From a candidate division WWE3 bacterium RIFOXYC1_FULL_40_10 (GTDB lineage: Bacteria; Patescibacteriota; WWE3; UBA101185; UBA10185): 64,000 nucleotides of DNA. Made by a program: the position numbers and the translations under genes. This document shows, one piece after another, positions 41,651 to 64,000 of the stretch. The notes under the pieces were generated by a model that worked only from the letters and a program-made list of their open reading frames with translations, was not told the origin of the DNA and ran no database searches. The stretch lies in contig MEWB01000001.1 of assembly GCA_001773215.1 (NCBI GenBank), positions 322,473-386,472 of the forward strand. The letters run 5' to 3'. Each line of letters begins with the position of its first letter. The first letter of the stretch is position 1.

Positions 41651-41712
41651 CTACTGCATTATACCGCAATAAGTTACCGCAGGTAGGGTATTACTTACAA
41701 AAAGGGGAAAGG

Positions 41713-42252: not shown

Positions 42253-42462
42253 ATGGGCATAAAATTTGGCGAAATAGATGCAACTCAAATTCTTGATAAC
42301 GAGTTTCGTGTTAAATTCACAGCGTTTCTTGTTGAATGGCTATTTGATAACAATCCCCAATTAAAAAAACCCACACCCGAGGAAATTAAAGCATTACAAG
42401 AAGCCGTCATTAAGGAACTCCAAAAAAAGTATCCAAATTCTGGGATTAAACTTCAACAATGA
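42253..42462 (+). CDS. small hypothetical protein upstream of the recombinase (possible directionality/accessory factor)
   Basis: ORF track; 4-nt overlap with the next ORF. Confidence 0.3.
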   Translation: MGIKFGEIDATQILDNEFRVKFTAFLVEWLFDNNPQLKKPTPEEIKALQEAVIKELQKKYPNSGIKLQQ

Positions 42463-42827: not shown

Positions 42828-42908
42828 CACCGCATAAGCCGTAACCGAGTTTAAGTCTACTGTATCTAAACATCCCCGCCACTTCGTAGTAACATACTCT
42901 TATATCGT

Positions 42909-44717
42909 ATGCCGACATTAAACTCACAAGACAAACCAGTTAAAGTAGCCTATTACCTACGAGTAAGCACGGATGACCAGATTGACCGTTATGGTATTGC
43001 ACTTCAAAAAAGGTCATTGGATGCCATTGTAGCCTCTCGTGGGACTCTTGAAGATGGAAAGACGAACGCATTACAACTCGCCGGAGAACAATACATCTAC
43101 AAAGATGAAGGTGTCAGTGGAACCATACCACTGGAAGACAGACCGGCTTTTGCGAGACTTCAAGAAGATGTTGTAAATGCACCGGACGGAGAAAAACCGT
43201 TTGATATTGTTGCCGTTTACAAAATTGACCGTTTTGCCCGAAAATTAAAGATTTTACTTGACGTCATTGAGTTCTTTGAGAAATACGGGATTAAGTTCAT
43301 ATCCGTACATGAGAGTATTGACACTTCAACTCCATTTGGGAGGGCGATTTTAGGGATTGTTGGTGTGTTGTCAGAACTTGAAATGGAAACGATAGCAATG
43401 CGAACCAGAGCCGGCAAAGAGGAAGCGATTGCAAAAGGTGTTTTCATGGGGAAAGTACCTCCATACGGCTATATCAAAGATACTGAACGAAGGCTTAAAG
43501 TGCTACCAAAAGAGGCAGAAATTGTGAACGTGATATTTGAAAAGTTTGTGGTTGAAAGGTTGCCGTTACAGGCTATATGCCGGTATTTAGAAGATAACAA
43601 GATTGAATCACCCGGAGTAACAGCAGTAACCAATCAAAAGCGTAAAGGCGGTATATCAAAGAAAAGCAACCCGTTCTTTTGGGCGACACCAATGATAAAA
43701 AACATACTTGGAGATGAAATCTATCTTGGAAAATACTACTACAACAAGACAAAGGGTAGAAAACATTTACCGAAAGCGGAGTGGAAATTGTCTGTATACA
43801 GATACGAGGCGATAGTTGATACCATCACCTTTGCGAAAACTCAAACACTGCTTGAAAACAGAAAGATATTCAATGTGGTGAGACATGACGACAAGCATAT
43901 TTACCTTTTAAGCGGTTTACTGAAATGTGCCTGTTGTTACAACCCGGAAAGAGACAAAAACGAAGGTATGCAAACATTGCATGGTGAACCAAAAGAAATC
44001 CACAAAGGTAGCCAGCACTATACTTACTACTACAAATGCAGAAGGAAAACTACTGCAAAAACCTCAATCAGATGCGGTTCGCTTCCCTTACCGGCTGAAC
44101 AAATTGAGAAATATGTTATTGAGAGACTCCGGGAACTTCTCACTGACCCAAAAGCAGTGTTTAATTATCAACTAAAATTAAGGTCAACAGAACAGGAACT
44201 TAAAAGGCTAAATACGGATTATGATATGATTCGCCGATTAAAAAATGGTCTACCACAAAGAAAATCAAACCTAAAAGAACAGCAAGAATACAGCTATATT
44301 ACCTCAAAAGAACTTACCGAGAAACTCAATGCACTTGATTCACAAGAAAAAGAGTATGACGGGAAACTGGCAGAGTGGGAAGCAAAAATATCAGAAACTA
44401 AACTAGACGAAGGTTACATCAAGAGTTTTGAAATCTTTGAAAAACAATACAAGAAGGCTTTGGAAGACATAAATAGCAACAGAGAAACATTACAACAATT
44501 ACTTCGGATGATAGTTGACAAGATAGTTGTTCACTCCCGACCAGTTAAGGAAGGAGACATTATAGCCGGAAGAAAAACCGGAGACCAACAGGTGCCGTAT
44601 AAAATAGAAATGAAACTACATTTGCCACAAGAGTATCTCAAACTTTTAGAAGCAAAAGCCAACGAAGCATGGGTCAACAGACCGGAGGAGTTCGGGGATA
44701 AAAATGTTAACTGGTGA
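42909..44717 (+). CDS. large serine recombinase (resolvase N-domain + recombinase domain + zinc ribbon + coiled coil)
   Basis: Catalytic-serine motif YYLRVSTDDQ; resolvase-domain motif DRFAR; Cys cluster CACC...C...C; ~600 aa typical of LSR integrases. Confidence 0.85.
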   Translation: MPTLNSQDKPVKVAYYLRVSTDDQIDRYGIALQKRSLDAIVASRGTLEDGKTNALQLAGEQYIYKDEGVSGTIPLEDRPAFARLQEDVVNAPDGEKPFDIVAVYKIDRFARKLKILLDVIEFFEKYGIKFISVHESIDTSTPFGRAILGIVGVLSELEMETIAMRTRAGKEEAIAKGVFMGKVPPYGYIKDTERRLKVLPKEAEIVNVIFEKFVVERLPLQAICRYLEDNKIESPGVTAVTNQKRKGGISKKSNPFFWATPMIKNILGDEIYLGKYYYNKTKGRKHLPKAEWKLSVYRYEAIVDTITFAKTQTLLENRKIFNVVRHDDKHIYLLSGLLKCACCYNPERDKNEGMQTLHGEPKEIHKGSQHYTYYYKCRRKTTAKTSIRCGSLPLPAEQIEKYVIERLRELLTDPKAVFNYQLKLRSTEQELKRLNTDYDMIRRLKNGLPQRKSNLKEQQEYSYITSKELTEKLNALDSQEKEYDGKLAEWEAKISETKLDEGYIKSFEIFEKQYKKALEDINSNRETLQQLLRMIVDKIVVHSRPVKEGDIIAGRKTGDQQVPYKIEMKLHLPQEYLKLLEAKANEAWVNRPEEFGDKNVNW

Positions 44718-44786
44718 GGACGGTGGGATTCGAACCCACGACCAAGGGATTAAGAGTCCCCTGCTCTACCACTGAGCTACGTCCCC
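44712..44786 (-). tRNA. tRNA-Lys (anticodon CTT)
   Basis: GGGGACG acceptor, GCTCAGTGGTAGAGC D-arm, anticodon loop CTCTTAA, TTCGAAT T-loop, CCA encoded. Confidence 0.8.
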
Positions 44787-45725: not shown

Positions 45726-47906
45726 CTATCTTGCTTCTCTTCCAAGCCTCAAACTATTTCCAACCACAGATACAGAGCTTAAAGCCATAGCTACACTTGC
45801 CATTACCGGCGATAACAATACTCCTATAAACGGATACAAAATCCCGGCTGCGACTGGAATTCCTAAAATATTATAGCCAAATGCCCAAACTAAGTTCTGC
45901 TTAATAATCGTTAACGTCCTTTTTGAAATCTGTATTGCCTCCAAAAACTTATCCAACGTCCCTTTAACTAATACAATGTCTCCCGCCTCGATAGCAACGT
46001 CGGTACCGGTTCCCATAGCAATACCTATATCGGCTTGAGCAAGAGCAGGTGCATCGTTAATACCATCACCTAACATGGCGATAACACTATTGGGATCACG
46101 GCTTTTAATGTTCTTAATTTCTTGAGCTTTTTGATCAGGTAGAACTTCCGCTATATACTCATCTACTCCCAACTCATGTGCAATAACATCTGCTGTAACT
46201 TTATTATCCCCGGTTAACATTATTGTTTTGATGCCCATGGCATTGAGTTTGTATATAACGTCCTTTGCATCTTCTTTTGGTGTATCAGCGAGGCTGAACA
46301 AACCCGCCAAATTGCCATCCCACGCTATATACGAAACCGTTTGGCCTTTTTGCTGTAACACGGCTGCTTTTTCAGTTATCATTGAATTTGTAACAATCCC
46401 TTGTTGTTCCATAAAGGCCTTAGTGCCAATCCATACCTTTTTCTCATCCACAATTCCAAAGATTCCAAAACCGGGGTAATCTACAAAACCCTCTACAGAT
46501 AAAGCCTCACTAAGTTTCTGTGCTTCATAATAGGCAGTCACTGCCTCGGCGAGCGGGTGTTGGGATAACTTCTCAAGCGAGTATAAAACTTTATTTGAAT
46601 ACTCAGCATCTAGCTTTTCCGAGAATTCTATTACTTGAACCTCAGGCTGGCCTTTTGTTAAAGTGCCGGTTTTATCAAAAACCACATGAGTAATCTTATG
46701 AGCTGTTTCTAATGCCCGGGCGTCCTTTATTAAAATGCCCTTTTTTGCAGACTTACCTGTGCCAACCATTACTGCAGTGGGAGTTGCCAAACCCAAAGCG
46801 CAAGGGCAGGCAATTACCAACACCGTAGTTGCAGTATAAATAGAAAATTGGGCACTTTTCCCCACCGCAAAAAACCAAAAAGAGAAGGAGGCAAGAGCTA
46901 TAGTAATCACGACAGGGACAAAAACTCCGGAAACTTTATCGGCAAGCCGTTGGATAGGAGCTTGTGTAGCTTGAGCCTGCTCGACCATTTTAATAATTTG
47001 AGCAAGAAGGGTATCAGACCCTACCTTTGTTGCTTTAAACTGGAAACTACCGGTTTTATTAAGAGTAGCTCCGATAACAGCGTCTCCAACCTTTTTTGAC
47101 ACCGGCATAGACTCTCCTGTTACCATCGACTCGTCTATATCGGTTGAGCCTTGAGTTATTTCTCCGTCGACAGGCACTTTCTGTCCGGGTTTTACTACTA
47201 CAATATCCCCTACCTTAACTTCTGAAATGGCAATTTTCAATTCCTTGCCATCACGTATTACAACTGCATCCTTAGCCTGAAGCTCAAATAATGCTTTTAT
47301 AGCCCCTTGAGCTTTCTTTTTGGCAGAAGCCTCAAGGTAACGCCCCAACATAATAAAAAATATTATAAAAACCGCGGCTTCAAAAAATACTTCTTCGGTT
47401 TCGAAAATGCTTGGTGCAAAAGTTACAACAGTAGAGTATCCCCAAGCAGTTAGCGTACCCATCGACACTAAAGTGTCCATGTTTGCCGTTTTGGATTTTA
47501 GGGCGATGAATGCACTTTTTAATATGTCCCAACCTCCTATAAAAAGATAAGGTGTGGCAATAATAAATTGGATAAGCGGTGGTCCCGACATCGTGAACAT
47601 GAAATACAAAAAAGGTGCTAGAGCAGCTCCCATAAATATAAGTTTCCCCTTCAATCTGTCCCGGAGCTGCTCCTGATGATGTGTGGTTTCATCCAGAAGC
47701 TTATATGCTCCTACACTGGCAACAGTTTGTTTCAATTTCTCCAGGCTTAAAATTTCATCATCGTAGGTAATATAAAGTTTTTCGGTTGCAAAATTTACAG
47801 TAAATTCATCAGTACCGGGTAATTCTGCTATCGACTTTTGAAGTAAAATTTTGCATGAGGCGCAGTGCATACCAACTATTGGATAGGTTTTTGTTATTTT
47901 GCTCAT
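45726..47906 (-). CDS. copA: copper-translocating P1B-type ATPase
   Basis: N-terminal HMA GMHCASC; CPC in TM6 (CPCALGLATP); DKTGTLT phosphorylation site; GDGINDAPAL hinge. Confidence 0.9.
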   Translation of the reverse strand: MSKITKTYPIVGMHCASCKILLQKSIAELPGTDEFTVNFATEKLYITYDDEILSLEKLKQTVASVGAYKLLDETTHHQEQLRDRLKGKLIFMGAALAPFLYFMFTMSGPPLIQFIIATPYLFIGGWDILKSAFIALKSKTANMDTLVSMGTLTAWGYSTVVTFAPSIFETEEVFFEAAVFIIFFIMLGRYLEASAKKKAQGAIKALFELQAKDAVVIRDGKELKIAISEVKVGDIVVVKPGQKVPVDGEITQGSTDIDESMVTGESMPVSKKVGDAVIGATLNKTGSFQFKATKVGSDTLLAQIIKMVEQAQATQAPIQRLADKVSGVFVPVVITIALASFSFWFFAVGKSAQFSIYTATTVLVIACPCALGLATPTAVMVGTGKSAKKGILIKDARALETAHKITHVVFDKTGTLTKGQPEVQVIEFSEKLDAEYSNKVLYSLEKLSQHPLAEAVTAYYEAQKLSEALSVEGFVDYPGFGIFGIVDEKKVWIGTKAFMEQQGIVTNSMITEKAAVLQQKGQTVSYIAWDGNLAGLFSLADTPKEDAKDVIYKLNAMGIKTIMLTGDNKVTADVIAHELGVDEYIAEVLPDQKAQEIKNIKSRDPNSVIAMLGDGINDAPALAQADIGIAMGTGTDVAIEAGDIVLVKGTLDKFLEAIQISKRTLTIIKQNLVWAFGYNILGIPVAAGILYPFIGVLLSPVMASVAMALSSVSVVGNSLRLGREAR

Positions 47907-49265
47907 TTAGTTAACTACAACCGTTACCGGCTGTACCATTCCCATTGAACAGGTGATTTTATAGGTACCGGGTGTTTTTGGTGTAAATTCAAACACATTC
48001 ATGCCCGGATTAAGCTGTATTATAGATGGGTAAAGACCACGCGCTGATACTGACCTAGAGCAGCCTACGGCTCCTTTGTTATTAAACTCCCATCTAACAG
48101 GGATCCCTGCCTTTAGTGTCACATTTTTAGGAGAATATTCAAACCCACTTGCTTCCATCCTTAAAATTTGGGTACCGCTACTATCAACATCCACCGCTTT
48201 GGTATCGCTGGTATTTACTGCGGTTTTGTCTACGGAGATTAAGTCGCTAAAACTTTTTAAACCCAGTACGTTTAGCTGGGAATTTAGCGTATTTATAGCA
48301 AAAAACACAACTAATGACCCCGCGATTACCCCAAATAGTTTTGACATACCTCTATGGTTATATAGCTTTAGGCTGGAAAAGCTCACAAAGGTTAGCATTG
48401 GGAGTGTTCCCAACGCGAAGGCTAATAATATCAGAGAGCCTGTGATAGGGTTTCCGCTGGCCAAAGCTATTGTTTGTGTAACTAAGGTGAATCCACAAGG
48501 AATAAAGAATGTTCCGGCTCCAATTAAAAATGGCACATACTTGCTTTTGATGGCAAAATCGTTTGAGACTAAGAAGGAAGCGAACTTGGGGGTTTTTATA
48601 TTAAATTTGTTTGCAAAATTAAACCCCATCATTTGTAAACCCAAAACTATCATAACCGCTGATACAGCTAGCGTCAGAAGGGCTGTAATACTAAGTGATA
48701 TCTGGAAGGTTTTGCCAATAAGGCCCAATAAAAATCCGAATGCGGCGTATGAAACCAGCCTGCCTATATTAAATAATACGAATGGAGTGTAACTTTTCTT
48801 TGAGTTAAGCCCGTATAGATCTTGCCACTTCTTGGATAAGGACAATAACAAACCGCCCACCAATGCGGCACAACTCGATACACCGGCTACCATTCCGAAG
48901 ATAAAAAAAGCACCCAATGAGGATGTTGAATTAACATTAAATGCCTTAAGTAATCCGGATCTCTCTACATATAGGAAACCGGTAATCAAAAATACAAATA
49001 TTACAAAAGCCTTAAACAGCTGAGCCTCGGTTATTTTAGGCTCCTCGGGCTTGTTCCTAGAAATCTTGTACCCGAGATCTCGGAGCTTGGAGTTTATACT
49101 ATCAACGTCAATTCGACCATCTAGGGTTACCTCGCATCTTGATAAAGATGCCTCAACTCCTTTGTAACCCTCTTCTTTTAGAGTTTTTTCTATTAGTAAT
49201 TCGCACGAGGGACAGTGCATCCCTTGAACATAGTACGTATTGGTATCTGTGGATTTATTGTTCAC
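47907..49265 (-). CDS. HMA-domain membrane protein with a C-terminal cupredoxin-like/Met-Cys domain, co-transcribed upstream of copA
   Basis: N-terminal GMHCPSCELL HMA motif; ~8 TM helices; C-terminal ~100-aa beta-rich domain with GCSRS and CSMGM. Confidence 0.6.
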   Translation of the reverse strand: MNNKSTDTNTYYVQGMHCPSCELLIEKTLKEEGYKGVEASLSRCEVTLDGRIDVDSINSKLRDLGYKISRNKPEEPKITEAQLFKAFVIFVFLITGFLYVERSGLLKAFNVNSTSSLGAFFIFGMVAGVSSCAALVGGLLLSLSKKWQDLYGLNSKKSYTPFVLFNIGRLVSYAAFGFLLGLIGKTFQISLSITALLTLAVSAVMIVLGLQMMGFNFANKFNIKTPKFASFLVSNDFAIKSKYVPFLIGAGTFFIPCGFTLVTQTIALASGNPITGSLILLAFALGTLPMLTFVSFSSLKLYNHRGMSKLFGVIAGSLVVFFAINTLNSQLNVLGLKSFSDLISVDKTAVNTSDTKAVDVDSSGTQILRMEASGFEYSPKNVTLKAGIPVRWEFNNKGAVGCSRSVSARGLYPSIIQLNPGMNVFEFTPKTPGTYKITCSMGMVQPVTVVVN

Positions 49266-51704: not shown

Positions 51705-54700
51705 ATGGACAATAAAAACACGTTTTACACGCTTGGAAGAGACCTGGCTATAAAGAAGAAATTCCCGCCAAAAAGAATTTTCCCGCTTATTAGAAAACAT
51801 AGCGATTTAGACTACAAAACCTTATATTCCCGTTTCGGAAATTTATATGCGTACTTAGTTTCGGAATACGAAAAAAACCCTGAAATAGTGCCCCTGGCCG
51901 CCTCGTGGATACTTGATAACTACTACCTAGTCAGCCAACAGTATGTCTTATTTGAGAAAACCTTTAAGACTAAGTTATTAAAAAAACTACCGTTATCGGA
52001 ATACGATCGGGTATATTACCAGATACACTATATAGCCAAAAAATACCTGGAGGCTACAAATTGTAGTTTTTCCGAAGAAACACTAATCCCATTTTTGAGG
52101 GGGTATCAGAAAATATACCCGTTATCTAGCCTCGAAATATGGATTTTGCCAACTGTGATCAAATTCGAGCAGACCCTAACCCTACTGAATAAAGGCTACG
52201 AGATCAGGGATAAAATTCAGAACGCTAAGTTTGCTGATCAGGTGGTTCAAATAATAGCTAACGACTTAAGCAGAAAGAAAAACCCGGTAAAAAAGATGAA
52301 TAGGATATTAAGAAGCCCGAACATGAACCCACATGTTCTTCTGGCCGTTCTTGAGGACGTAAGGGAATTAGATTATAAGGTAGAAGAAACACTGGCTCTT
52401 GTGGAATCCAAAATTCACGAGGAAGATCTAAACCTCGAGGAATATACCCGTGCAAGTGTGTTAAGAGATATTAATCTAAAACAGACCCTAAGTAACACAG
52501 TTTTGTCAATCAAAAATTTCTTCTATATAAACTGGAACAAGTTCTATAACAAAGTAAGCATTGTTGAAAGTACGCTCAAACTGGATCCGGCAAATATCTA
52601 TGCGACCATGGACGATATAAGCAGAGACAGATACCGCCATATTATTAGCGATCTTAGCAATAATAGCAATTATAGCGAATCAGAAGTTGCCAGAAAGGTT
52701 GTGGAAACTGCCGCAGCCTCGAATATTGATATCCAACAACACGTGGGGTATCACTTGATAGATCATGGTTTTTTTAACTTTGCTGAAAAAATAGGCTATA
52801 AACCAACCTTTAAAGTATTTGTTATTAACTGGCTAAAAAAGTACCCTAACTTGGGTTACATGGGAGGCATCTTCTTAATAACAGTAGCTTTGTCAGCGCT
52901 TTCCTTTTTTACAGCAATAATAGTTTCCCATAACTTGCTTTTCACACTCCTGTTCTCGGTTGGTCAGCTGTTTATAGCTTCTAACCTGGCAACTCTGATT
53001 ATTAACAAGTTATTAGCCTACATTCTTCCTACAGCGCTTCCTCCCAAGATAGAGTTGAAGGACTTTATTCCCGAAAACTGCAAAACCATGATAGTTATTC
53101 CAAGTATGCTTTCGGGAATGGAAAAAGTAGATAAATTAGTATACGAATTGGAGAAAAGATTTCTGTGTAACAAATACAAGAATCTCTTTTATGCTCTTCT
53201 ATGTGACTATAAGGACTCCGACGTTGAAGAATCCGAGGGTGATTATCAACTTTTAGCCTATGCAAGGGAAAAAATAAGGGAGCTAAATGAAAAACATATG
53301 GATGAAGGCTTTAACGTGTTCTATTTTTTCCATAGGAAACGCCAATTTAGCCAAAAGGAAGGCGTTTGGATGGCATGGGAGAGAAAACGCGGAAAATTAC
53401 TTCAGCTGGTTGAATGGCTCACAAAAGAAGGTAACTTTTTCTCGGTTATAGATGGGGATTTAGATAAATTAACTGATATCAAGTATGTAATTACACTAGA
53501 CGAAGACACTATGCTGCCAGCCGATTCTGCTTTAAAGCTCATAGGTGCGATGGAGCACCCTCTTAATCGTCCAGTTGTAAACCCCGATACTAGAATAGTG
53601 ACAAGAGGTTATGGATTTATACAGCCCAGAGTAATACTGATGCCCGAAGCTGAGGGACTTTCGAACTTCACGCACATTTTTGTAACAGAAAGTGGGTATG
53701 ATTCCTATTCTAATGCCACCTCGGATATTTATCAGGATTTGTTTAATCGGTCTATCTTTTGGGGCAAAGGAATATTTGACGTACAGGCTATAAAGGAAAG
53801 CCTTGGAGATAGGTTCCCTGAAAACCGAATTCTTAGCCATGATTTGATTGAAAGCTGTTTTTCCAAAGCGGCCTACCTTTCGGATACAAGCATAATCGAA
53901 GACTACCCTCCAACCTTTAATAGCTATCTAATGCGGGATAGCAGGTGGATACGTGGAGATTGGCAATTAATACCCTGGCTGTTCCCGAATATTATGTCAA
54001 AAGGGAATACATTCGAGAAAAACCCTCTGGATTTCCTCTCGAAATGGTTAATATTCACAAATTTGAGAAGAAGCATGATTTTACCGCTTTTTCTTTTCTC
54101 ATATATGCTAAGCTGGCTTGTAATAAAATCCGACATATTAACAGCCTATCTATCGGTTCTATTCTTTTCCCAAATATTTATTGAGCTAGATGATATTTCA
54201 AGGCCAATTAGCCATAAAATGCCTCTCACTGAAAAACTTATCTTAATAGTTTCCTCAGTTAAAAAGAAAATTACTCTTGTAGGCGCATATTTTGTTGGGC
54301 TTAGTCTGCTAGCCCTAAATAAAACTCAGGCGATACTAATATCGCTATATAGATTGTTAACAAACAAACACCTGCTGGAGTGGACTACATTCGACGAAGC
54401 TCAGCAACTTGTTGATAAAAATGCCAGTCTGCGGAAACAGCTATTGTCTCCATTTACAATCGCAAACTTACTAATAATTTTATATCTGGTGCAATCGGGT
54501 AAGGCTACCGTTATCAACACGGCGATAATTGTTCTATGGTTACTCTCCCCTGCTATATACACGCATATTAGCCGTCCTTTGAAGACAAAAAAACTTCGGG
54601 AGTACATTACGGATAAGGAAAGGATGCTCTCGTACGCCAAAAAAATATGGCTATTTTTTGAGAGTTATACCAACGAGGAAAGTAATCACCTTCCTCCGGA

Positions 54701-57700
54701 TAACCTGCAGCTCATACCTACTACAAAAATCGCATTTAGAACATCTCCAACTAATATTGGTTTTTATCTATTGTCACTGCTATCAGCCTTTGACCTGGGC
54801 ATTGTCACGGCGGATAACTTTGTAGATAGACTTAAAAAGACACTTTCTACGATTGTGAAGCTAAAAAAGTATGAGGGCCAGCTATATAATTGGTATGACG
54901 TAAAAACGCTTGAACCTTTAAACACCTACATATCTACGGCCGATGCCGGAAATTATGTGGCTACGTTAATGCTTTTGGAATCAGCATGCGATGATTTAGT
55001 CAAAAACTCAACGAGTTTGAGTAAGGAAAACATCGAAGAGCTAATCTACGTGCGTAAAGCACTCAAAAGTTTGTATTTGGCCTCAGACTTTACCTTTCTA
55101 TACAACAAGAATATGGAAGTATTTTCGATAGGGTTTAATTCGGATACATGCGAAAAAGACTCCAGCCATTACGATTTTCTAGCATCTGAAGCTAGAATAA
55201 CAAGCTATGTTGCGATAGCTCTTGATCAGGTTGAAACGAAGCATTGGTTTAATATCTCAAGGCCCTATCAAGTAAGAAAAGGAAAGTTCTATCTTATGTC
55301 TTGGGGCGGAACAATGTTCGAATATCTCCTACCCACGTTACTTTTTAACGAAAAAGATAATACACTGCTGGGCCAAACTGCTAAAGAAATTTGTTCACTT
55401 CAAATAAAGTATGGACATGACAATGGTATACCGTGGGGGATTTCTGAATCTAATTTCGATTCGTTCGACCTTGATGCAAATTATCAATATAAAATGATGG
55501 GAGTTCCTAAGCTAGCTCTAAAAAGATACGATACTGAAGATTTAGTCATATCACCTTACTCGTCGTTCCTGGCGCTAATGGTAAATCCTGTAGCTGCTGA
55601 AAAAAACCTCAAACTTCTTGAAAAGCATAAAGCTCTGGGCTTGTACGGTTTCTTTGAGGCTATCCATTTCACCAGATCAAAGAAAGACGCTTTGGAAGAG
55701 CAGCTAGTTCAAATATACACGGCTCATCATCAAGGAATGTGTATGGTAGCAATTAACAACGTCCTAAATGATCGCCTCATGGTGAGAAGGATGCATAGTA
55801 ATAACTACGTCAAATCGTGTGAAATACTTTTGGACGAGCGAATCCCTGAGGTGGCGAACGTAGTGGACCCTAATCAGTACGGCTATGATAAAAGGGTCTC
55901 CTCAGTTAAGATTTACGAAAAGGATCGCGTTAGATTTTCGAGTACCCCAAACACATTGTTTCCTATCGCTCAGATTTTCGGAAACGGAAGATACTCTACT
56001 ATGATTACCAACTCGGGGGCAGGATACAGTAAATTTAAAGACATCTATTTGAATAGGTTTAGTGAAGATCTCTCTCTAGATAATTCCGGCAATCATATTT
56101 ACATTAAAGATGTAGACCTAGACTATTTTTGGTCGGCTACCTATCAACCTACCTTAAAACAAGCTGAAAAATATGAGGCTAAGTTCGATGATGAGCATGC
56201 TGAATTTCATAGGCTAGACAGGAACACAAACACCTCTCTAACAGTACTGGTCCCTCCTGAAAAGAATTTCGAACTAAGAATTCTAACACTTAAAAACTCA
56301 TCAGTATTTCCTAAGGAATACGAAATCACTACGTATAACGAAGTAATGCTGGACGACTTTAAGGCCGGGGTTACTCATCCTGCTTTTAATAAACTGTTTA
56401 TAGAAACAAGTTGCATCGACGAAATACTAATTGCAAAACGACGGAAGAGGAATCAAAAGGACCCGGATAGATATGCGTTCCATTTTGGATACTCCGAAAC
56501 AGAAGACTTCACACTGGATTCTTACGAAACATGCCGATCAAATTTTGTAGGACGAACTAAAACCCCACGAAATCCGGTTATGATGCACAAAGTATTAACC
56601 AACACCCTTGGAGCGGTATTAGATCCGATATTTAGCTTGAGATATAAAGTTAAGCTACTTCCCGGCGAAACGAAAAAGATATATTTCGTATATGGATATG
56701 CTACCAATCCGCATGAGATTAAAGCTACAAAAGACCTTATTCAAGCTAACGGGTCTATAAGTGAATTAAGTTATTTGAACGGGCACTATGTAGAAGCCCG
56801 CAGAACGCATTTGGGAATTACCGTTGGACAGGAGATAACCTTCCAAAGAGTTGCATCCCGACTAATCTACCCGGACTTTCGTCTTCAGGAACAGTCGGAT
56901 TTGCAGCACTACAAAGGAAAAAACGTGTTGTTTAGATTCGGTATATCGGGGGATAACAAAATATTAGTTCTAAAGGTTAATAGCACAAACATAGAGATGC
57001 TCAGGAACATGGTGTTGTTGCATAAATACCTTAGAATACTGCGCTTCCAGATAGACTTAGTGTTTCTAATTGACGAAACGATAAGCTATGAGGAAACGTT
57101 AGAAAGAGATGTAGCTTCCTTAGTTGGTCCAGAAGAAAAGAATTCTGGAATCTTCATCCTGAATGTTGTAAACATGTCTATTGAGGAAAAACATACTTTG
57201 CTGGCTTTAGCCAAAGCTGTATTTGATACTTCTCTTGGATCTCTCGATGAGCAAATTAGCATCGCCACAAGGTACTCGGAACCCGGAGTTGTTAAAGTTC
57301 CACCAACTCGCCGCTCTAATGTGATAGAAAGCATCGGCACAATTAAGGAGGAACTGGATGACTTGGAGTTCTACAATGGCTTGGGCGGTTTTTCTGATAA
57401 CGGCAGAAAGTATTCAATAAACTATAACCCTAATTACCCTACTCCTTTGCCCTGGACAAATGTTATCTCCAACGAAACATTTGGAACTGTTGTGTCAGAA
57501 GCGGGATTGGGGTACACCTGGAACATCAATAGCCAGATAAACAAAATCACTCCATGGTCGAATGATTATGTTTGCGATCCACAAGGCGAGGCGATTTATC
57601 TCAAGGATACACTAACCGGTGCCGTTTTTGGTGCAACTCCTCTGCCGTGCAATGACTCGGAATTCAGTGTAGTGCATGCCCCGGGTTATACGGATTATAT

Positions 57701-59732
57701 CGGTAGGTACGGTTTAGTCGAACACGCACTAAGGGTTTTTGTTGACAGTAATGATCCTGTCAAAATCCTAAAACTAACACTAACCAATAAAAGTAATTAC
57801 GACAAGAAATTTGAAGTTACCTATTACGTGGATTTTGTTTTGGGGGAATACAGCTGTCCCGATCAGGAAAACTTAAATATTCAATTTAACTCAGATAATC
57901 AGAGCATTACCGCCATGAATCCTTCTAACGAAGTTTTTAAGGATAAAACAGCTTTTATGGCAGCTAGTAATGTTTTAGTATCGGCTACTTCCGATCGTAA
58001 AAGGTTTTTTGGGATTGGGGGATCAATCGAATCTCCGCTATGGGTAACAGAAAGCAAGAGGAAAATAGTCGGTTTTAAAGACGTGTCAGATAAATGTGGT
58101 GTGATAACAATAGAGATGTGGGTGCCTAGGAACTCTCATGCATCTGCCGCTTTTATACTAGGCCAAACAGATAATCCCGAAAGTTGCGCTCCCTTAATAG
58201 ATACGTATACTAATTTGGACAATTTAGATCAGAAACTACAAAGAGTTATAGATAGTTGGCAAATACTTCAAAATAAGATTGTAATCCACACCCCTGATAC
58301 TAAACTCAATTACTTAGTAAATAATTGGCTTTTATACCAGGTAGTCTCCTCACGATTATATGGCAGGACATCTTTTTACCAAGCCTCGGGTGCATTCGGC
58401 TTCAGGGATCAGTTACAAGATGTAATGGCATTGGTGCACTCCGACACCGGTAAAATACGCAATCATATTATTTTATGTTGCTCCCATCAGTTTAAAGAGG
58501 GTGATGTACAACATTGGTGGCATAACCCATCAAATGTGGGCGTAAGAACTAGAATTAGTGATGATTTATTATGGCTTCCCTTTGTAGTTAGCTTTTATAT
58601 AGAAAAGACCGGAGATTTTAGTATTTTGTCGGAAACTGCTCCTTACCTTGACATGTCGCAAGTACCCCAGGATAGTGAAAGCTTATACGGGATTCCAACC
58701 ATATCAGAGGAGGTGGGCACTGTTTTAGATCATTGTATTAGGGCAATTGAAAGATCACTTCAATTTGGTGTACACGGCTTGCCATTGATAGGCTCCGGAG
58801 ACTGGAATGACGGTTTAAATAGTGTGGGGGACGAAGGTAAAGGAGAGAGTGTATGGCTTGGGTGGTTTTTGATCGCTGTTCTGGAGAATTTCTCAAAGCT
58901 ACCCGGAGATTTCGATAAAGAAAACTACCTAAAGAAAGCGGAAGAACTAAAAGAGAACATAAACAATACCGGCTGGGACGGTGAGTGGTTCGTTAGGGCT
59001 TTCTACGACGACGGTACCCCAGTGGGTTCTCACGTAAACAACGAGTGCAAGATTGATTCGATAACTCAATCATGGAGTATTATTTCTAAAGCTACAAGTC
59101 TGGATAAGATGTCTCGGGCTATGACTAGCCATAATTTGTATTTAGAGGATAGCAAGCACGGGCTGGTTAATCTACTTACTCCACCTTTTCATGATTCTGA
59201 GCCATTTCCCGGATACATTCAAGGGTATCCTGAGGGTGTTAGAGAAAATGGCGGACACTACACCCACGGAGCAGTTTGGGCGCTAAAAGCATATGCTCTG
59301 CAGAAAAATGCGGATAAAGTGCAGGAACTACTTAACGTATTAAACCCCATCTCCCGATCTTTAGATAAGGATAAAGTAAACGTGTATAAGTCGGAACCTT
59401 ATGTAATGGTAGGAGATATCTACTCAAATAGTCAACACATGGGTAGGGGTGGTTGGAGTTGGTATACGGGATCTGCCGGGTGGATGTACCAGGTATGTAT
59501 TGAGGATGTGTTGGGACTGAAAAAATTCGCTGAGTACTTTACGCTTGAACCGGTTATTCCAAAGAGCTGGAAAGGATTTGATATGCAGTACCATCACAAG
59601 GGTACCAACTACAACATAACTGTCAAAAGAGGCAGTCACAAAGGGTTATCACAAAACGGCAAAGTGCAGGAAGATAAAAAAATCAAGTTAATTGAAAACG
59701 CCGGGGAAGTAATCGTGGAACTAGTTATCTAA
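51705..59732 (+). CDS. cyclic beta-1,2-glucan synthase-like giant protein (2675 aa): N-terminal multi-TM region, GT84-like glycosyltransferase, C-terminal GH94 phosphorylase-like (alpha/alpha)6 domain
   Basis: Central DEDTML DxD with flanking TM helices; C-terminal GH94 signatures RDQLQDV, GSGDWNDGLN, GGWSWYTGSAGWMYQ; size matches NdvB/ChvB/Cgs. Confidence 0.8.
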   Translation: MDNKNTFYTLGRDLAIKKKFPPKRIFPLIRKHSDLDYKTLYSRFGNLYAYLVSEYEKNPEIVPLAASWILDNYYLVSQQYVLFEKTFKTKLLKKLPLSEYDRVYYQIHYIAKKYLEATNCSFSEETLIPFLRGYQKIYPLSSLEIWILPTVIKFEQTLTLLNKGYEIRDKIQNAKFADQVVQIIANDLSRKKNPVKKMNRILRSPNMNPHVLLAVLEDVRELDYKVEETLALVESKIHEEDLNLEEYTRASVLRDINLKQTLSNTVLSIKNFFYINWNKFYNKVSIVESTLKLDPANIYATMDDISRDRYRHIISDLSNNSNYSESEVARKVVETAAASNIDIQQHVGYHLIDHGFFNFAEKIGYKPTFKVFVINWLKKYPNLGYMGGIFLITVALSALSFFTAIIVSHNLLFTLLFSVGQLFIASNLATLIINKLLAYILPTALPPKIELKDFIPENCKTMIVIPSMLSGMEKVDKLVYELEKRFLCNKYKNLFYALLCDYKDSDVEESEGDYQLLAYAREKIRELNEKHMDEGFNVFYFFHRKRQFSQKEGVWMAWERKRGKLLQLVEWLTKEGNFFSVIDGDLDKLTDIKYVITLDEDTMLPADSALKLIGAMEHPLNRPVVNPDTRIVTRGYGFIQPRVILMPEAEGLSNFTHIFVTESGYDSYSNATSDIYQDLFNRSIFWGKGIFDVQAIKESLGDRFPENRILSHDLIESCFSKAAYLSDTSIIEDYPPTFNSYLMRDSRWIRGDWQLIPWLFPNIMSKGNTFEKNPLDFLSKWLIFTNLRRSMILPLFLFSYMLSWLVIKSDILTAYLSVLFFSQIFIELDDISRPISHKMPLTEKLILIVSSVKKKITLVGAYFVGLSLLALNKTQAILISLYRLLTNKHLLEWTTFDEAQQLVDKNASLRKQLLSPFTIANLLIILYLVQSGKATVINTAIIVLWLLSPAIYTHISRPLKTKKLREYITDKERMLSYAKKIWLFFESYTNEESNHLPPDNLQLIPTTKIAFRTSPTNIGFYLLSLLSAFDLGIVTADNFVDRLKKTLSTIVKLKKYEGQLYNWYDVKTLEPLNTYISTADAGNYVATLMLLESACDDLVKNSTSLSKENIEELIYVRKALKSLYLASDFTFLYNKNMEVFSIGFNSDTCEKDSSHYDFLASEARITSYVAIALDQVETKHWFNISRPYQVRKGKFYLMSWGGTMFEYLLPTLLFNEKDNTLLGQTAKEICSLQIKYGHDNGIPWGISESNFDSFDLDANYQYKMMGVPKLALKRYDTEDLVISPYSSFLALMVNPVAAEKNLKLLEKHKALGLYGFFEAIHFTRSKKDALEEQLVQIYTAHHQGMCMVAINNVLNDRLMVRRMHSNNYVKSCEILLDERIPEVANVVDPNQYGYDKRVSSVKIYEKDRVRFSSTPNTLFPIAQIFGNGRYSTMITNSGAGYSKFKDIYLNRFSEDLSLDNSGNHIYIKDVDLDYFWSATYQPTLKQAEKYEAKFDDEHAEFHRLDRNTNTSLTVLVPPEKNFELRILTLKNSSVFPKEYEITTYNEVMLDDFKAGVTHPAFNKLFIETSCIDEILIAKRRKRNQKDPDRYAFHFGYSETEDFTLDSYETCRSNFVGRTKTPRNPVMMHKVLTNTLGAVLDPIFSLRYKVKLLPGETKKIYFVYGYATNPHEIKATKDLIQANGSISELSYLNGHYVEARRTHLGITVGQEITFQRVASRLIYPDFRLQEQSDLQHYKGKNVLFRFGISGDNKILVLKVNSTNIEMLRNMVLLHKYLRILRFQIDLVFLIDETISYEETLERDVASLVGPEEKNSGIFILNVVNMSIEEKHTLLALAKAVFDTSLGSLDEQISIATRYSEPGVVKVPPTRRSNVIESIGTIKEELDDLEFYNGLGGFSDNGRKYSINYNPNYPTPLPWTNVISNETFGTVVSEAGLGYTWNINSQINKITPWSNDYVCDPQGEAIYLKDTLTGAVFGATPLPCNDSEFSVVHAPGYTDYIGRYGLVEHALRVFVDSNDPVKILKLTLTNKSNYDKKFEVTYYVDFVLGEYSCPDQENLNIQFNSDNQSITAMNPSNEVFKDKTAFMAASNVLVSATSDRKRFFGIGGSIESPLWVTESKRKIVGFKDVSDKCGVITIEMWVPRNSHASAAFILGQTDNPESCAPLIDTYTNLDNLDQKLQRVIDSWQILQNKIVIHTPDTKLNYLVNNWLLYQVVSSRLYGRTSFYQASGAFGFRDQLQDVMALVHSDTGKIRNHIILCCSHQFKEGDVQHWWHNPSNVGVRTRISDDLLWLPFVVSFYIEKTGDFSILSETAPYLDMSQVPQDSESLYGIPTISEEVGTVLDHCIRAIERSLQFGVHGLPLIGSGDWNDGLNSVGDEGKGESVWLGWFLIAVLENFSKLPGDFDKENYLKKAEELKENINNTGWDGEWFVRAFYDDGTPVGSHVNNECKIDSITQSWSIISKATSLDKMSRAMTSHNLYLEDSKHGLVNLLTPPFHDSEPFPGYIQGYPEGVRENGGHYTHGAVWALKAYALQKNADKVQELLNVLNPISRSLDKDKVNVYKSEPYVMVGDIYSNSQHMGRGGWSWYTGSAGWMYQVCIEDVLGLKKFAEYFTLEPVIPKSWKGFDMQYHHKGTNYNITVKRGSHKGLSQNGKVQEDKKIKLIENAGEVIVELVI

Positions 59733-59835
59733 TGGCGCCCCCAAGAGGATAATGGTCGAACTCTTTTTGAAAAGCTATATGGCTATTTCAGCAAAAGAGA
59801 TTTGCAAGTTTATACTTCCTAGAGATAAACAAAAA

Positions 59836-59866
59836 CCCCTGTCTGATCGCATATATCACACAGGGG
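59836..59866 (-). terminator. Rho-independent terminator for the minus-strand ORF 59886..60371
   Basis: cccctgtctgatcgcatatatcacacagggg flanked by aaaaa on the plus strand (a T-run on the minus strand). Confidence 0.55.
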
Positions 59867-59885
59867 TTTCGAATCTAGCTATGTA

Positions 59886-60371
59886 CTAAAACAACTGTCC
59901 ACGGCCTTGCCCCCAGCATGCAAAGTAATTTTTCTCAATTTGCCGGGCGGCCTTAAGCTGCTTCTTCGTTAGCAAGCCCAGCTGAGCATTTCCCGGTTGC
60001 TTTTCTTCATACATTGCTTTAAACAGGCTTTCAAAAAGGACATCCCGCAGCTGTTCGAATGTCAACTCGCCTCGATCCTCTGTCTCGTGATCGTACAGGT
60101 CTACGATGAAACTGTAGACGCAGTCACCGATCAACACGAGCCAACTCGTGAGTTCTGTTTCCGAATCGAGAGTAGCGAAAAAGTGCCATATTTTATTCTC
60201 CAAGTGAGAGTAATAATTTCCCCCATCGTACCTCGTGCAAAACCCGCTAATGTGGCCAAACCCTTCGTAGTTGCCATTCTCTGCCTTTTGAGCCCATGCC
60301 AAATAAGCAGAGTCGAAATGACTGCGGCAAGCTACAAGATCGAGATGACTTACTCTAGCATTTGTACTCAT
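59886..60371 (-). CDS. hypothetical protein (islet cargo)
   Basis: ORF track; GC higher than background. Confidence 0.45.
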   Translation of the reverse strand: MSTNARVSHLDLVACRSHFDSAYLAWAQKAENGNYEGFGHISGFCTRYDGGNYYSHLENKIWHFFATLDSETELTSWLVLIGDCVYSFIVDLYDHETEDRGELTFEQLRDVLFESLFKAMYEEKQPGNAQLGLLTKKQLKAARQIEKNYFACWGQGRGQLF

Positions 60372-60504
60372 TTTTTGTCTCCTTTAAGACAATTGTCACC
60401 CTTTGCCACAACAGCATTGGGTTAGAGGAATTACACGACACAACATCGTGTTATATATGTTGATATTATAACAGAAATCAGGATTTGTCAAACTATAGGA
60501 TATA

Positions 60505-60581
60505 TGGCGCCCCCAAGAGGATTCGAACCCCTAACCTCTTCGTCCGAAGCGAAGCGCTCTGATCCGTTGAGCTATGGAGGC
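60505..60581 (-). tRNA. tRNA-Arg (anticodon TCG)
   Basis: GCCTCCA/TGGGGGC acceptor, anticodon stem CTTCG/CGAAG with loop CTTCGGA, TTCGAAT T-loop, GCCA 3' end. Confidence 0.8.
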
Positions 60582-61076: not shown

Positions 61077-62261
61077 TTATTCCCACCTTAACGATTCGAT
61101 AGGATCTTTTTTACTGGCTTGGATAGCAGGATACGTTCCGAATACAGCTCCCACAAAAACAGAAAAACCTAGAGAGACAAACACCGCCCACAAGGGAACT
61201 TCCGTCCTTATAAATTTACTGGCAACCTGGGATGCTATCCACCCAAGAAATAATCCTATTACACCTCCTCCTAAACTAAGCAACATGCTTTCGATAATAA
61301 ATTGAAAGCCTATTACAAATGAAGTGGCCCCAACGGCCTTCCTAAGACCAATTTCCTTGATCCTCTCGGTAACAGAAACTAGCATTATGTTCATAATACC
61401 GATACCCCCTACTAGCAACGAAATCCCCGCTACTGCCGCCAAACCAAGTGTAAGTATGTTTAATATGTCCTCGATACTTCTTAAGATATCCTTTTGGGAC
61501 ATTATGCTGAAATCCTCCTTATCTAGGTCAGCCAATAATGCCACTTCTAGTTGCTTTGAAGCAATGTCCATATCTACATTTGGTTTAACCTTCGCAGTAA
61601 TATAGCTAATACTTTCCACTCCTATAGAATCCTTTACAGCGTTAAAAGGAATGTAGACAAGCTCGTCGAAATCGGCTCCTCGTTCCCGTGTTACTCCAAT
61701 CACTTTGTATTTTTTGCTGTCAATTATTACCTTTTCACCAAGTGGATCTCTCTGAGAAAATAGCTCTTTAGCCACAGCAGGGCCTAAAACTATTACCCGC
61801 GCACCGGATTTATCTTCGCTAGTTGAAAAAAATCTCCCCTTAGACATAGCTAAATTTTCAACCCGATCGTACACTGAATAAACTCCGGAAATTGTTGAGA
61901 AAAACTTCCTGTTTTTATACTCCACTGTTTTTCCTACAAATATTAAAGGAGAAACAACATCAATATAATCTGCGGCACCCGACTCGATCAGTCGAACGTG
62001 TTCTTCCCTAATTTTGTTGTCGGTAAATGATAGTGCAGGATCTCCTGCTATCCCCGCTCTCCCTGGTGCAACAAATAATAAGTTTGAGCCTAAATTCTCA
62101 AATTGATCACGAACATAGTTTTCTACGCCCTTAACTAGCGACACCAATGTAACTACCGAAAATACGCCAATCACAACTCCGAGTATAGTTAGAAAAGACC
62201 TAACTTTATTAGAACTTAATGCTTTGGTGGCCGATAAAAATGCTTCCAAAAATTTACTCAT
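61077..62261 (-). CDS. ABC transporter permease, FtsX/MacB family (large periplasmic domain)
   Basis: N-terminal TM FLTILGVVIGVFSVVTLVSL, ~200-aa periplasmic domain, C-terminal 3-TM FtsX domain with VSVTERIKEIGLRKAVGA. Confidence 0.8.
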   Translation of the reverse strand: MSKFLEAFLSATKALSSNKVRSFLTILGVVIGVFSVVTLVSLVKGVENYVRDQFENLGSNLLFVAPGRAGIAGDPALSFTDNKIREEHVRLIESGAADYIDVVSPLIFVGKTVEYKNRKFFSTISGVYSVYDRVENLAMSKGRFFSTSEDKSGARVIVLGPAVAKELFSQRDPLGEKVIIDSKKYKVIGVTRERGADFDELVYIPFNAVKDSIGVESISYITAKVKPNVDMDIASKQLEVALLADLDKEDFSIMSQKDILRSIEDILNILTLGLAAVAGISLLVGGIGIMNIMLVSVTERIKEIGLRKAVGATSFVIGFQFIIESMLLSLGGGVIGLFLGWIASQVASKFIRTEVPLWAVFVSLGFSVFVGAVFGTYPAIQASKKDPIESLRWE

Positions 62262-63435
62262 ATCTTAAAGATTCAATTGGATCCTTTTTTCCTGCAGTAA
62301 TTGCAGGGTAAGTACCAAATAGTACGCCAACTCCAACAGAAAATCCTACTGAGATAATTAAAGCCCACCCAGGGATCTGTGCTCTAATCAAAGACGAAAT
62401 TCCAACAGTCAGTAACCAGCCAAGAGATATGCCGATAACGCCACCCATAAGACTAATAACAACAGCTTCCGATAAAAACTGCACTGCAATATTTGACGGC
62501 GTAGCCCCTAGCGCTTTCCTAAGACCAATCTCTTTAGTCCTTTCGGTAACTGATACCAGCATGATATTCATAATACCGATCCCCCCAACTACTAGTGATA
62601 TAGCTGCAACAGCCCCCAATCCTGCAGATAACACTCCTAGTATGTTGGAAACGGAGCTGAGAATATCTTTTTGCGATAAGACATCGAATTCGTCAGCCTT
62701 TAGATCGTGTAATAAGGCTAATTCAACTTGCCCCATTACGATGTCGATTTTTTGGCCGTCTTTTGCCTTAGTAGCAATCCCGGAAAACTTATCAATCCCC
62801 AGATATGTATCCAGTGATGTGTATGGGACCAAAATTCGATCATCCGAATTAAGTCCCTTCTTGTTGAGTACACCTATTACTTCAAACGCAATCCCTTCAA
62901 CCGTTACCTTCTTGCCTAGCGGGTCTATTTCTCCAAAAAGTTCATCGGAAACCTGAGGCCCGATAACAGTTACTCTAGCTTTGGAGGAAACTTCTCCTTC
63001 AGTAAAATTTCTTCCTGTTTCAGCAGATACATCTGTTATTTGAAACGCCTTTTCGTTCACTCCACTTACCGTTGCGGCAAATTGTTTATTTTTGTACTTT
63101 ACCGTTTTTCCAACTCTAATGCTGGGAGTTACTCCAACAATATAGTTACCTGCGTATTTTTCTATCAACTCAATGTGTTTAGCCCTAAGTTTGTTATTTG
63201 TGAATGTAACAGCAGGATCCTGATTAAACCCGGTTCTACCTGGCGCAACTAAAATCAAATTCGACCCCAAAGCGTTAAACTGGTCGGTGACGAAATTCTC
63301 CACCCCTTTAACTAAAGATACCAGGGAAATAACTGCAAAAACTCCTATGATTACACCCAGCATGGTTAAAAACGAACGCGTTTTATTCAAACTTAGTGAA
63401 ATAAAAGCGGCTTTTACTGCCTCAAGTATATTCAT
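62254..63435 (-). CDS. ABC transporter permease, FtsX/MacB family (paralog of the previous one)
   Basis: Same architecture and motifs (VSVTERTKEIGLRKALGA); overlaps the neighbour by 8 nt. Confidence 0.8.
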   Translation of the reverse strand: MNILEAVKAAFISLSLNKTRSFLTMLGVIIGVFAVISLVSLVKGVENFVTDQFNALGSNLILVAPGRTGFNQDPAVTFTNNKLRAKHIELIEKYAGNYIVGVTPSIRVGKTVKYKNKQFAATVSGVNEKAFQITDVSAETGRNFTEGEVSSKARVTVIGPQVSDELFGEIDPLGKKVTVEGIAFEVIGVLNKKGLNSDDRILVPYTSLDTYLGIDKFSGIATKAKDGQKIDIVMGQVELALLHDLKADEFDVLSQKDILSSVSNILGVLSAGLGAVAAISLVVGGIGIMNIMLVSVTERTKEIGLRKALGATPSNIAVQFLSEAVVISLMGGVIGISLGWLLTVGISSLIRAQIPGWALIISVGFSVGVGVLFGTYPAITAGKKDPIESLRYE

Positions 63436-64000
63436 ACAATGATACCGTCGCGTAAAACTATTTTCCGTTCGGCAATTTTAGCCAAATCATCGTCGTGAGT
63501 AACAATAATAATGGTTTTACCTTGTGAGTGGAGCTTTTTGAACAGCGCAACAATTTCATCCCCGGTTTTTGAGTCTAAATTACCGGTGGGCTCATCCGCA
63601 AATATTATAGCAGGGTCGTTAACTAAAGCTCTAGCTATAGCCACACGTTGCTTTTGACCTCCCGACAACTCATTCGACTTGTTTTGCAGCCTATCCCCCA
63701 GATCCACTATTTCGAGCATTTTTTTAGCCTTATCTTCCCATTGGTTTTTTGGCACATGACTGTACTTTAAGGGCAAAATTACGTTATCCAAGGTCGATGT
63801 CCTTTGTAGTAAGTTAAAAAACTGAAACACAAAACCTATCTCCTCGTTTCGAATATGAGCCAGCTGATTAGGGGTATATTTCGTTACATTCTTATCCTTT
63901 AATATAAGCTCGCCGGATGTAGGAGTATCTAGAAGGCCTAATATGTGCATAAGGGTTGACTTACCTGATCCAGACTTTCCTACTATAGCTAGGAAATCGT
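63432..64000 (-). CDS. ABC transporter ATP-binding protein (MacB/LolD-like), 5'-truncated by the window edge
   Basis: ABC signature LSGGQKQRVAIARAL, Walker B IIFADEPTGNLD; Walker A GKSGSGKST is visible upstream of the track start, so the gene continues past nt 64000. Confidence 0.85.
   Translation of the reverse strand, partial: DFLAIVGKSGSGKSTLMHILGLLDTPTSGELILKDKNVTKYTPNQLAHIRNEEIGFVFQFFNLLQRTSTLDNVILPLKYSHVPKNQWEDKAKKMLEIVDLGDRLQNKSNELSGGQKQRVAIARALVNDPAIIFADEPTGNLDSKTGDEIVALFKKLHSQGKTIIIVTHDDDLAKIAERKIVLRDGIIV

Follow-up and report, generated by a model that had tools for sequence, protein, structure and literature searches.

We analyzed a 64-kb stretch of genomic DNA (64,000 nucleotides, hereafter the window) from the candidate division WWE3 bacterium RIFOXYC1_FULL_40_10, and characterized within it a single large gene, here named cgs, whose product is, judging from its sequence, a complete homologue of cyclic β-1,2-glucan synthase (Cgs). 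The cgs open reading frame (ORF) occupies positions 51705..59732 of the plus strand, starts with ATG, and runs over 8028 nt without frame interruption, encoding 2675 amino acids. The translation contains the motifs ITLDEDTMLP, GSGDWNDGLN, GGWSWYTGSAGWMYQ and GFRDQLQDV, and both the list of ORFs and the translation reproduce the coordinates, the protein length and every motif quoted in an initial annotation of this DNA. The identical 2675-aa sequence is present at NCBI as OGC60591.1, OGC61650.1, OGC64407.1 and HLD51035.1, annotated as ‘hypothetical protein’, in records of RIFOXYC1_FULL_40_10 and its sister bins; under these four accessions it is found on 14 contigs, the longest of 903,723 bp. 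In ENA, the counterpart of the window is a 485,960-bp scaffold belonging to the data set of the Rifle aquifer. Hence the host is a groundwater bacterium of the candidate phyla radiation (CPR, or Patescibacteria), candidate division WWE3. Its description as a small low-GC genome was accurate, as the GC content is 0.399 in the window and ∼40% in the largest contig (0.90 Mb); a closed WWE3 genome from the same site has 878,109 bp (PMC3812714). The 8-kb cgs gene thus takes up ∼0.9% of the 0.90-Mb genome.

Among all PDB chains searched by phmmer, the best match of the Cgs protein is the Agrobacterium tumefaciens Cgs resolved by cryo-EM (chains 8RF0/8RF9; query residues 54-2642, 1501 bits), followed by the cyclisation domain of Thermoanaerobacter italicus Cgs (TiCGS, 8WY1) and then by GH94 phosphorylases. 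The order of parts is the same as in the A. tumefaciens enzyme, namely an N-terminal domain (NTD), two transmembrane (TM) helices, a GT84 glycosyltransferase domain, four TM helices, a cyclase domain (CY, family GH189), and a GH94 phosphorylase with a Rossmann-fold-like (RFL) insert, all carried on one polypeptide within the range of about 2700-2900 aa.

All domain boundaries are given for the plus strand. The NTD, a cytoplasmic scaffold domain (residues 1-385, 51705..52859), was recognized by the alignment of query residues 54-404 to residues 79-431 of A. tumefaciens Cgs (E=2.9e-22). The first TM pair (residues ∼386-440, 52860..53024) shows Kyte-Doolittle maxima at 389-407 and 415-440 in a 19-residue scan and aligns to TM1-2 of the A. 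tumefaciens protein. The GT84 domain (residues ∼441-785, 53025..54059) was delimited by alignment to 8RF9/8RF0, the Pfam match to GT2_3 (residues 594-807) being weak. The second TM cluster (residues ∼786-952, 54060..54560) aligns to TM3-6 and has maxima at 790-808, 913-931 and 934-952. The cyclase domain (residues ∼953-1400, 54561..55904) matches TiCGSCy, the T. italicus cyclisation domain of 8WY1, with E=1.1e-104, and overlaps the Pfam domains DUF3131 (residues 977-1074) and Glycoamylase (‘glucoamylase’, residues 1157-1366). The remaining part of the protein is the GH94-type phosphorylase (GP) region with its RFL subdomain (residues ∼1401-2675, 55905..59729), supported by alignments to A. tumefaciens residues 1699-2270 and 2260-2805 and by Pfam matches to the GH94 supersandwich domain (two stretches, E=1.9e-123) and to the GH94 catalytic domain PF17167 (residues 2185-2604, E=2.4e-101). 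The RFL insert between GP1 and GP2 was recovered by segment alignment to A. tumefaciens Cgs.

The overall hydropathy profile, with maxima at ∼389-440, 790-808 and 913-952, fits two helices before the glycosyltransferase domain and a four-helix bundle after it, as in the A. tumefaciens structure. The remaining helices of the second bundle fall under the hydropathy threshold and were placed by homology, their number, four, being taken from that structure. The TM helices described as N-terminal in the initial annotation are therefore present as a pair but do not stand at the N-terminus, since a soluble domain of ∼385 aa precedes them.

Alignment of residues 54-404 to the A. tumefaciens NTD also decides between two gene models. 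In the ENA gene call, cgs appears as two pieces, a 152-aa ORF read in a different frame (window positions 51734-52192; positions 9412-10001 of contig L041, corresponding to the window region 51705-52323) and a 2469-aa product starting at 52323. Because the part upstream of this start belongs to a conserved domain, we consider the 2675-aa NCBI model right and the 2469-aa call wrong. Two antisense ORFs within cgs (53532-53840 and 57086-57340, minus strand) give tblastn matches in relatives. As candidate genes they were rejected as artefacts, the matches arising from the opposite, conserved coding strand. Scans for promoters and terminators around cgs gave hits at the chance level (23 vs 25.4 expected and 6 vs 7.6 expected, respectively).

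The fold of the cyclase domain was further assessed with an AF2 model of residues 955-1400 (pLDDT 82, pTM 0.87). In a Foldseek search the top match of this model is 8WY1 (E=4.8e-33, TM-score 0.84), followed by A. tumefaciens Cgs and then by the β-1,2-glucanases of families GH144 and GH162.

To describe the active sites, we used residues shown or proposed to be functional in the A. tumefaciens enzyme (Sedzicki 2024, PMC10901819) and in TiCGS (Tanaka 2024, PMC10834661), and scored their conservation in a 48-sequence MAFFT alignment that includes the Patescibacteria clade, Bacillota, Acidobacteriota, Bacteroidota, Proteobacteria and others. All twenty functionally assigned residues, the Tyr primer site included, are present in the WWE3 protein. 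The assigned columns are invariant across the 48 sequences, with the exception of a gap in one row and a single D-to-S substitution at D2369, and are invariant in all 10 members of the Patescibacteria clade.

The GT84 domain retains the UDP-binding Asp residues, the DxD residues, the catalytic base and the RW motif of the A. tumefaciens enzyme. Here D501 is the equivalent of D527, R560 of R586, D599/D601 (DxD) of D624/D626, D713 of the catalytic base D739, R747-W748 of the RW motif (R773), and R750 of R776; D501, D599/D601, D713 and R747-W748 are identical in 48/48 sequences. Tyr694 of the A. tumefaciens enzyme carries the covalently bound glucan primer (PMC10901819). The tyrosine aligned to it in the IF1h loop, Y668, is likewise invariant (48/48) and is predicted to be the autoglucosylated primer residue. 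In the cyclase domain, D1080 corresponds to A. tumefaciens D1104, and the mapping to TiCGS (PMC10834661) pairs E1162 with the acid/base E1356, E1206 with E1400, E1248 with the nucleophile E1442, and H1341/H1342 with H1536/H1537. This domain thus combines the (α/α)6 fold with the nucleophile, the acid/base, the pKa-tuning Glu and the His-His pair of GH189. In the GH94 domain, D2369 of the GDWND motif corresponds to the catalytic acid D2528 and D2235 (within R2234-D2235 of the GFRDQLQD motif) to D2393; D2366 is also retained, and H2521 sits in the phosphate site. The assigned GH94 residues are conserved in at least 47 of the 48 sequences.

The initial annotation had proposed a Cgs/NdvB/ChvB homologue, and this identity is well supported by the whole-length alignment, the domain order, the residues of three active sites together with the Tyr primer, and the cyclase fold. 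GH94 is recognized by Pfam profiles and GT84 by the alignment to 8RF9/8RF0. The central domain does not fall into a different glycosyltransferase family, and the GH94 catalytic residues are intact.

The closest characterized systems are A. tumefaciens Cgs/ChvB (PDB 8RF0, 8RF9; Sedzicki et al. 2024) and its orthologues, B. abortus Cgs and Sinorhizobium NdvB, which share the domain order with the WWE3 protein. In our alignment the latter is ∼35% identical to proteobacterial homologues. With 2675 aa compared to 2818 aa in A. tumefaciens, it is ∼150 residues shorter, mainly by the missing ∼120-aa four-helix motif of CY. The hosts also differ, as published WWE3 genomes lack genes for lipopolysaccharide (LPS) or an outer membrane (PMC3812714). 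TiCGS, the founding member of GH189 (8WY1), is the best match to residues ∼953-1400 in both structure and sequence, and its host is likewise non-proteobacterial. Stand-alone GH94 enzymes (cellobiose phosphorylase, chitobiose phosphorylase and 1,2-β-oligoglucan phosphorylase) have the fold and the catalytic Asp of GDWND in common with the C-terminal 750 aa (E ∼1e-50 to 1e-70). However, these phosphorylases are soluble and catabolic, whereas in WWE3 Cgs the domain would be the length-control module of a membrane-bound synthase.

Close relatives of WWE3 Cgs are few. A database search retrieved 13 clusters at 48-100% identity with 116 member sequences, one of which is named ‘Patescibacteria group bacterium’; every match beyond these clusters in the same search is at most 39% identical. 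In a neighbour-joining tree of 2621 columns, the query and the relatives P0002-P0012 group together on a long stem with 100% bootstrap support. The identity of this clade to every other Cgs group is similar, at ∼35%, and therefore no donor can be named. The comparison with proteobacterial Cgs called for by the initial annotation thus places the protein in a separate, isolated clade. A HMMER scan of 1.84 billion 50%-identity representatives with the N-terminal 1200 aa as a query (E<=1e-30) found 3048 proteins, and close relatives among the best 150 of them are limited to a full-length representative (56% identity) and a fragment, the next match being at 41%. With a CPR host and a clade this small, the gene's occurrence here was fairly called unusual. 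A neighbour of P0003 shares a 90%-identity cluster with a Patescibacteria protein on a 460-kb contig. Protein scans of genome and metagenome contigs returned only relatives of 28-45% identity (Bacillota, Acidobacteriota and Proteobacteria) and no member of the Patescibacteria clade; the gene context of the clade members was obtained from exact sequence look-ups.

Analysis of this context links cgs with sugar nucleotide metabolism. In all six sister-clade contigs (L042, L045, L083, L084, L085, L086), a phosphoglucomutase/phosphomannomutase gene (pgm, 466-475 aa) follows cgs on the same strand after 6-53 nt. In Brucella, Pgm is needed for the synthesis of cyclic β-1,2-glucan, as it supplies UDP-glucose (PMC2995898). 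The cgs-pgm operon thus fits the predicted chemistry, because Pgm supplies UDP-glucose and the GH94 step releases glucose-1-phosphate, and it links cgs of the sister lineage to the supply and recycling of glucose-1-phosphate. In the window, a full-length UDP-glucose 6-dehydrogenase is encoded at 34000-35379 (GC 0.488, well over the window mean), and therefore UDP-glucose is a metabolite in this organism. A further association of cgs with UDP-glucose supply was observed in Paenibacillus xanthanilyticus, where a GalU-like NTP_transferase gene (L009, 8871-9833) is located divergently, just upstream of the cgs homologue.

Taken together, these data are best explained by a membrane-bound Cgs homologue that makes cyclic β-1,2-glucan, is encoded by a resident gene, and most likely has an osmotic or protective role; we assign this interpretation a probability of roughly 80%. 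Enzymatic activity, ring size, export and role are deduced here from the sequence and the A. tumefaciens model. By homology to A. tumefaciens, the protein would be anchored in the cytoplasmic membrane via six helices, and its catalytic domains would all lie in the cytoplasm. The GT84 domain would glucosylate Tyr668 from UDP-glucose and then extend the β-1,2 chain on that primer. The growing chain would reach the GP surface, where the GH94 domain would trim its non-reducing end with phosphate and release glucose-1-phosphate, which provides the length control. The GH189 cyclase, with the nucleophile E1248 and the acid/base E1162, would then perform an intramolecular transglycosylation that frees a ring of ∼17-25 glucoses and regenerates the primer. 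After export by a putative transporter, this non-reducing glucan would most likely have an osmotic or protective effect in the wall, in the S-layer space or at the surface of cells living in dilute groundwater. Of the possible functions, we rank osmoprotection or an envelope function first and host interaction second.

Several observations weigh against this interpretation. The first concerns export. The TM bundle of A. tumefaciens Cgs forms no channel, and the glucan is exported by a separate ABC transporter, Cgt (PMC10901819). Whereas the Cgs-Cgt systems (ChvB-ChvA, NdvB-NdvA) have such a dedicated exporter, no chvA/ndvA-type gene adjoins WWE3 cgs, and no type-I ABC exporter of the Cgt/ChvA/NdvA type was found in the 64-kb window, in 10 kb of flank or near cgs in seven related contigs, not every window ORF having been scanned. 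Second, a classical periplasmic location of the product is not obviously applicable: four candidate-phylum genomes, WWE3 among them, are devoid of lipid A and LPS genes, and the published WWE3 genome encodes sortases and many glycosyltransferases (PMC3812714). Third, pgm is not adjacent to cgs in this genome or in that of P0012 (L044), and none was found in the window and flank (74 kb). Finally, the Patescibacteria proteins lack most of the four-helix dimerisation motif, as discussed below.

Two candidate partners were considered and rejected. The MacB-type pump at 61077-63950 is not next to cgs in any relative, and a 505-aa polytopic membrane protein (12605-14122) is not a conserved partner, as L042 and L045 have proteins of similar size near cgs that belong to a different family. 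The 505-aa protein has no Pfam match, a GT-C-like look and an N-terminal DD motif; its homologue with 40% identity is located divergently, adjoining cgs, on the P0012 contig (L044, 8204-9742).

The same enzyme may serve another purpose, its cyclic glucan being a symbiosis factor that acts on a host cell rather than an osmoprotectant, for instance a carrier resembling cyclodextrins that would disturb the host envelope or draw lipids from host membranes for use by a lipid-auxotrophic episymbiont. CPR bacteria depend on hosts, and an 8-kb gene is a large investment for a 0.90-Mb genome. Moreover, cyclic β-1,2-glucans of Brucella behave in a cyclodextrin-like manner and extract membrane cholesterol (PMC2995898), and the known biology of Cgs is mostly that of host interaction (PMC10901819). 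We nevertheless consider this role unlikely. The argument is one by analogy, the bin has no known host, and the neighbourhood of cgs shows no link to secretion or export. The trait is also rare in Patescibacteria, with 13 clusters formed at 90% identity and a single close 50% cluster in the best 150 matches, so it is not a general CPR strategy. A more elaborate scenario, in which this ultra-small lineage without LPS uses cyclic β-1,2-glucan outside a classical periplasm as a cyclodextrin-like agent at the contact with its host (for envelope loosening or lipid shuttling), produced by a monomeric minimal Cgs and released by an exporter unrelated to Cgt, appears improbable to us.

The shortened cyclase domain raises the question of the product. 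In A. tumefaciens, a four-helix motif of ∼120 residues protrudes from the cyclase domain and forms a back-to-back dimer contact (PMC10901819). The spacing between D1080 and E1162 is 81 residues in WWE3 Cgs, compared to 133-302 residues in long-type homologues of the 48-sequence alignment; counted from alignments, the same anchors are separated by ∼195 residues in A. tumefaciens and ∼230 in T. italicus. However, stretches of 73-103 residues are found at the same spot in P0015, P0073 (Vicinamibacterales), P0089, P0109, a Paenibacillus and some short Clostridia proteins, and we therefore did not count the motif as a defining feature of the family, since several homologues outside CPR lack it as well. 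Among these proteins, P0015, P0073, P0089, P0109 and the P. xanthanilyticus homologue resemble WWE3 Cgs in length (2709-2741 aa) and insert size (81-103 residues), but are only 35-36% identical to it and fall outside the Patescibacteria clade in the tree. The scattered distribution of the short form outside the clade indicates that it is either ancestral or has arisen more than once.

It can be speculated that the product is not the canonical ring with a degree of polymerisation of 17-25 but a linear β-1,2-glucan or rings of other sizes, possibly an intracellular reserve or compatible solute. Such a product would be in line with the reduced spacing at a site of dimer contact and with the lack of an exporter found near cgs. 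On the other hand, dimers make up only a minor fraction of the A. tumefaciens enzyme, TiCGSCy cyclises as an isolated domain, every cyclase catalytic residue is conserved, and the occurrence of the short insert in several unrelated lineages suggests a viable variant. A non-canonical product is thus rather improbable, and synthesis of the cyclic glucan remains the preferred interpretation.

The cgs gene is located between two tRNA genes, each with an integration scar. Downstream, a tRNA-Arg(tcg) gene (60504..60581, minus strand; ARAGORN, Rfam tRNA 64.7 bits) ends in a 19-nt sequence, ATGGCGCCCCCAAGAGGAT (60504..60522), which a repeat search found duplicated with 100% identity as an att-like direct repeat at 59732..59750, the first base of this left copy being the third of the cgs stop codon. 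In 100 shuffles, two matches to this repeat never occurred. The islet between the repeats (59751..60503) contains one orphan ORF of 161 aa (59886-60371, minus strand) with GC 0.471 and GC at third codon positions (GC3) 0.525, compared to GC 0.399 in the window. The ORF has no match in Pfam, NCBIfam, PHROG or PADLOC, and five other small neighbouring ORFs have none in PADLOC. The insertion islet reported directly after cgs in the initial annotation is therefore real, being bounded by a perfect repeat of the tRNA-Arg 3' end; it measures 772 bp, has no integrase, and has the appearance of a vestigial or miniature integrative element. Because the left copy of the repeat overlaps the cgs stop codon, cgs and tRNA-Arg must have been direct neighbours before the insertion.

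Upstream of cgs, a 21-nt exact repeat of the 3' end of tRNA-Lys(ctt), at 39723-39743 and 44712-44732 (region to 44786), bounds an integrated element of ∼5 kb. Besides a large serine recombinase of 602 aa (42909-44717), this element contains several small ORFs, of which one (40836-41228) matches PHROG 14937 (E=2.6e-8). Neither of the two att-bounded elements includes cgs, and the 44.8-59.7 kb segment is not bracketed by any repeat pair.

The initial annotation had mentioned horizontal acquisition. In a recent event of this kind, cgs would have been brought in as cargo by a mobile island located between tRNA-Lys and tRNA-Arg, for which speak the flanking tRNA genes with att-type duplications, a serine recombinase 7 kb upstream, neighbours such as CopA and DinB that are typical accessory genes, and a synteny that is not kept with relatives. 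We regard this origin as very improbable. Apart from its exclusion from both elements (39744-44711 and 59751-60503), the absence of repeats bracketing the 44.8-59.7 kb region and its position next to tRNA-Arg before the islet arrived, cgs has a native composition (GC 0.395, GC3 0.404), and the codon-usage distances of its 1.5-kb chunks (0.052-0.056) are within the range of other window genes. The D-Ala-D-Ala ligase (Ddl) encoded in the window and that of the P0002 contig share 58.5% identity, which is comparable to 63% for Cgs. The congruent divergence, the native composition and the conserved, monophyletic clade with a long stem and no identifiable donor point to a long residence of cgs in the lineage. 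Thus, recent horizontal transfer is not supported, and cgs is a resident gene of a small, Patescibacteria-specific clade. The last alternative, an assembly or binning artefact or a decaying relic, to which the splitting of the gene by one gene caller (the 152-aa out-of-frame and 2469-aa calls) might point, has a negligible probability given the uninterrupted frame of 8028 nt, the alignment of the N-terminal 400 aa to the A. tumefaciens NTD, the presence of the same sequence on 14 contigs under four NCBI accessions, including those of 486 and 904 kb, and the intact catalytic residues.

The other neighbours of cgs encode a copper ATPase, an HMA-DsbD_2-cupredoxin protein and DinB, and a MacB-type ABC system is located beyond tRNA-Arg. 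In the copper cluster (45726-49265), the gene of a P1B ATPase of the CopA type precedes that of a 452-aa fusion protein, in which HMA and DsbD_2 membrane domains are joined to a cupredoxin-like domain at the C-terminus. Elsewhere in the window, a 919-aa protein (17646-21313) fuses a GT2 domain, LysM and a NosD/β-helix region; beside it lies a 303-aa ORF similar to UDP-glucose/GDP-mannose dehydrogenases, with no match to the C-terminal domain. Three consecutive ORFs at 22893-26455 (357, 341 and 438 aa) have no Pfam match and a GC content of 0.45-0.48, compared to 0.40 in the window.

Cyclic β-1,2-glucans are textbook molecules of host interaction and osmoadaptation in diderm Proteobacteria. The family, fold and mechanism of Cgs are already known, and no new mechanism is proposed at the enzyme level; new are the presence of Cgs in an unexpected host, a CPR bacterium of WWE3, and its shortened form. 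Some relatives carry automatic annotations such as ‘cyclic beta-1,2-glucan synthetase’ or ‘glucoamylase family protein’. In the literature searched, we found no report linking Cgs with CPR, Patescibacteria or WWE3, and its presence in WWE3 has apparently not been described before.

With a complete Cgs that occupies ∼0.9% of a 0.9-Mb CPR chromosome and is conserved across a small clade of Patescibacteria, the range of this enzyme extends to organisms without an outer membrane. A naturally shortened Cgs lacking the dimerisation motif may also be useful to enzymologists. For the biology of the organism, its predicted product is a testable candidate for a molecule by which some CPR cells may cope with dilute groundwater or deal with their hosts.

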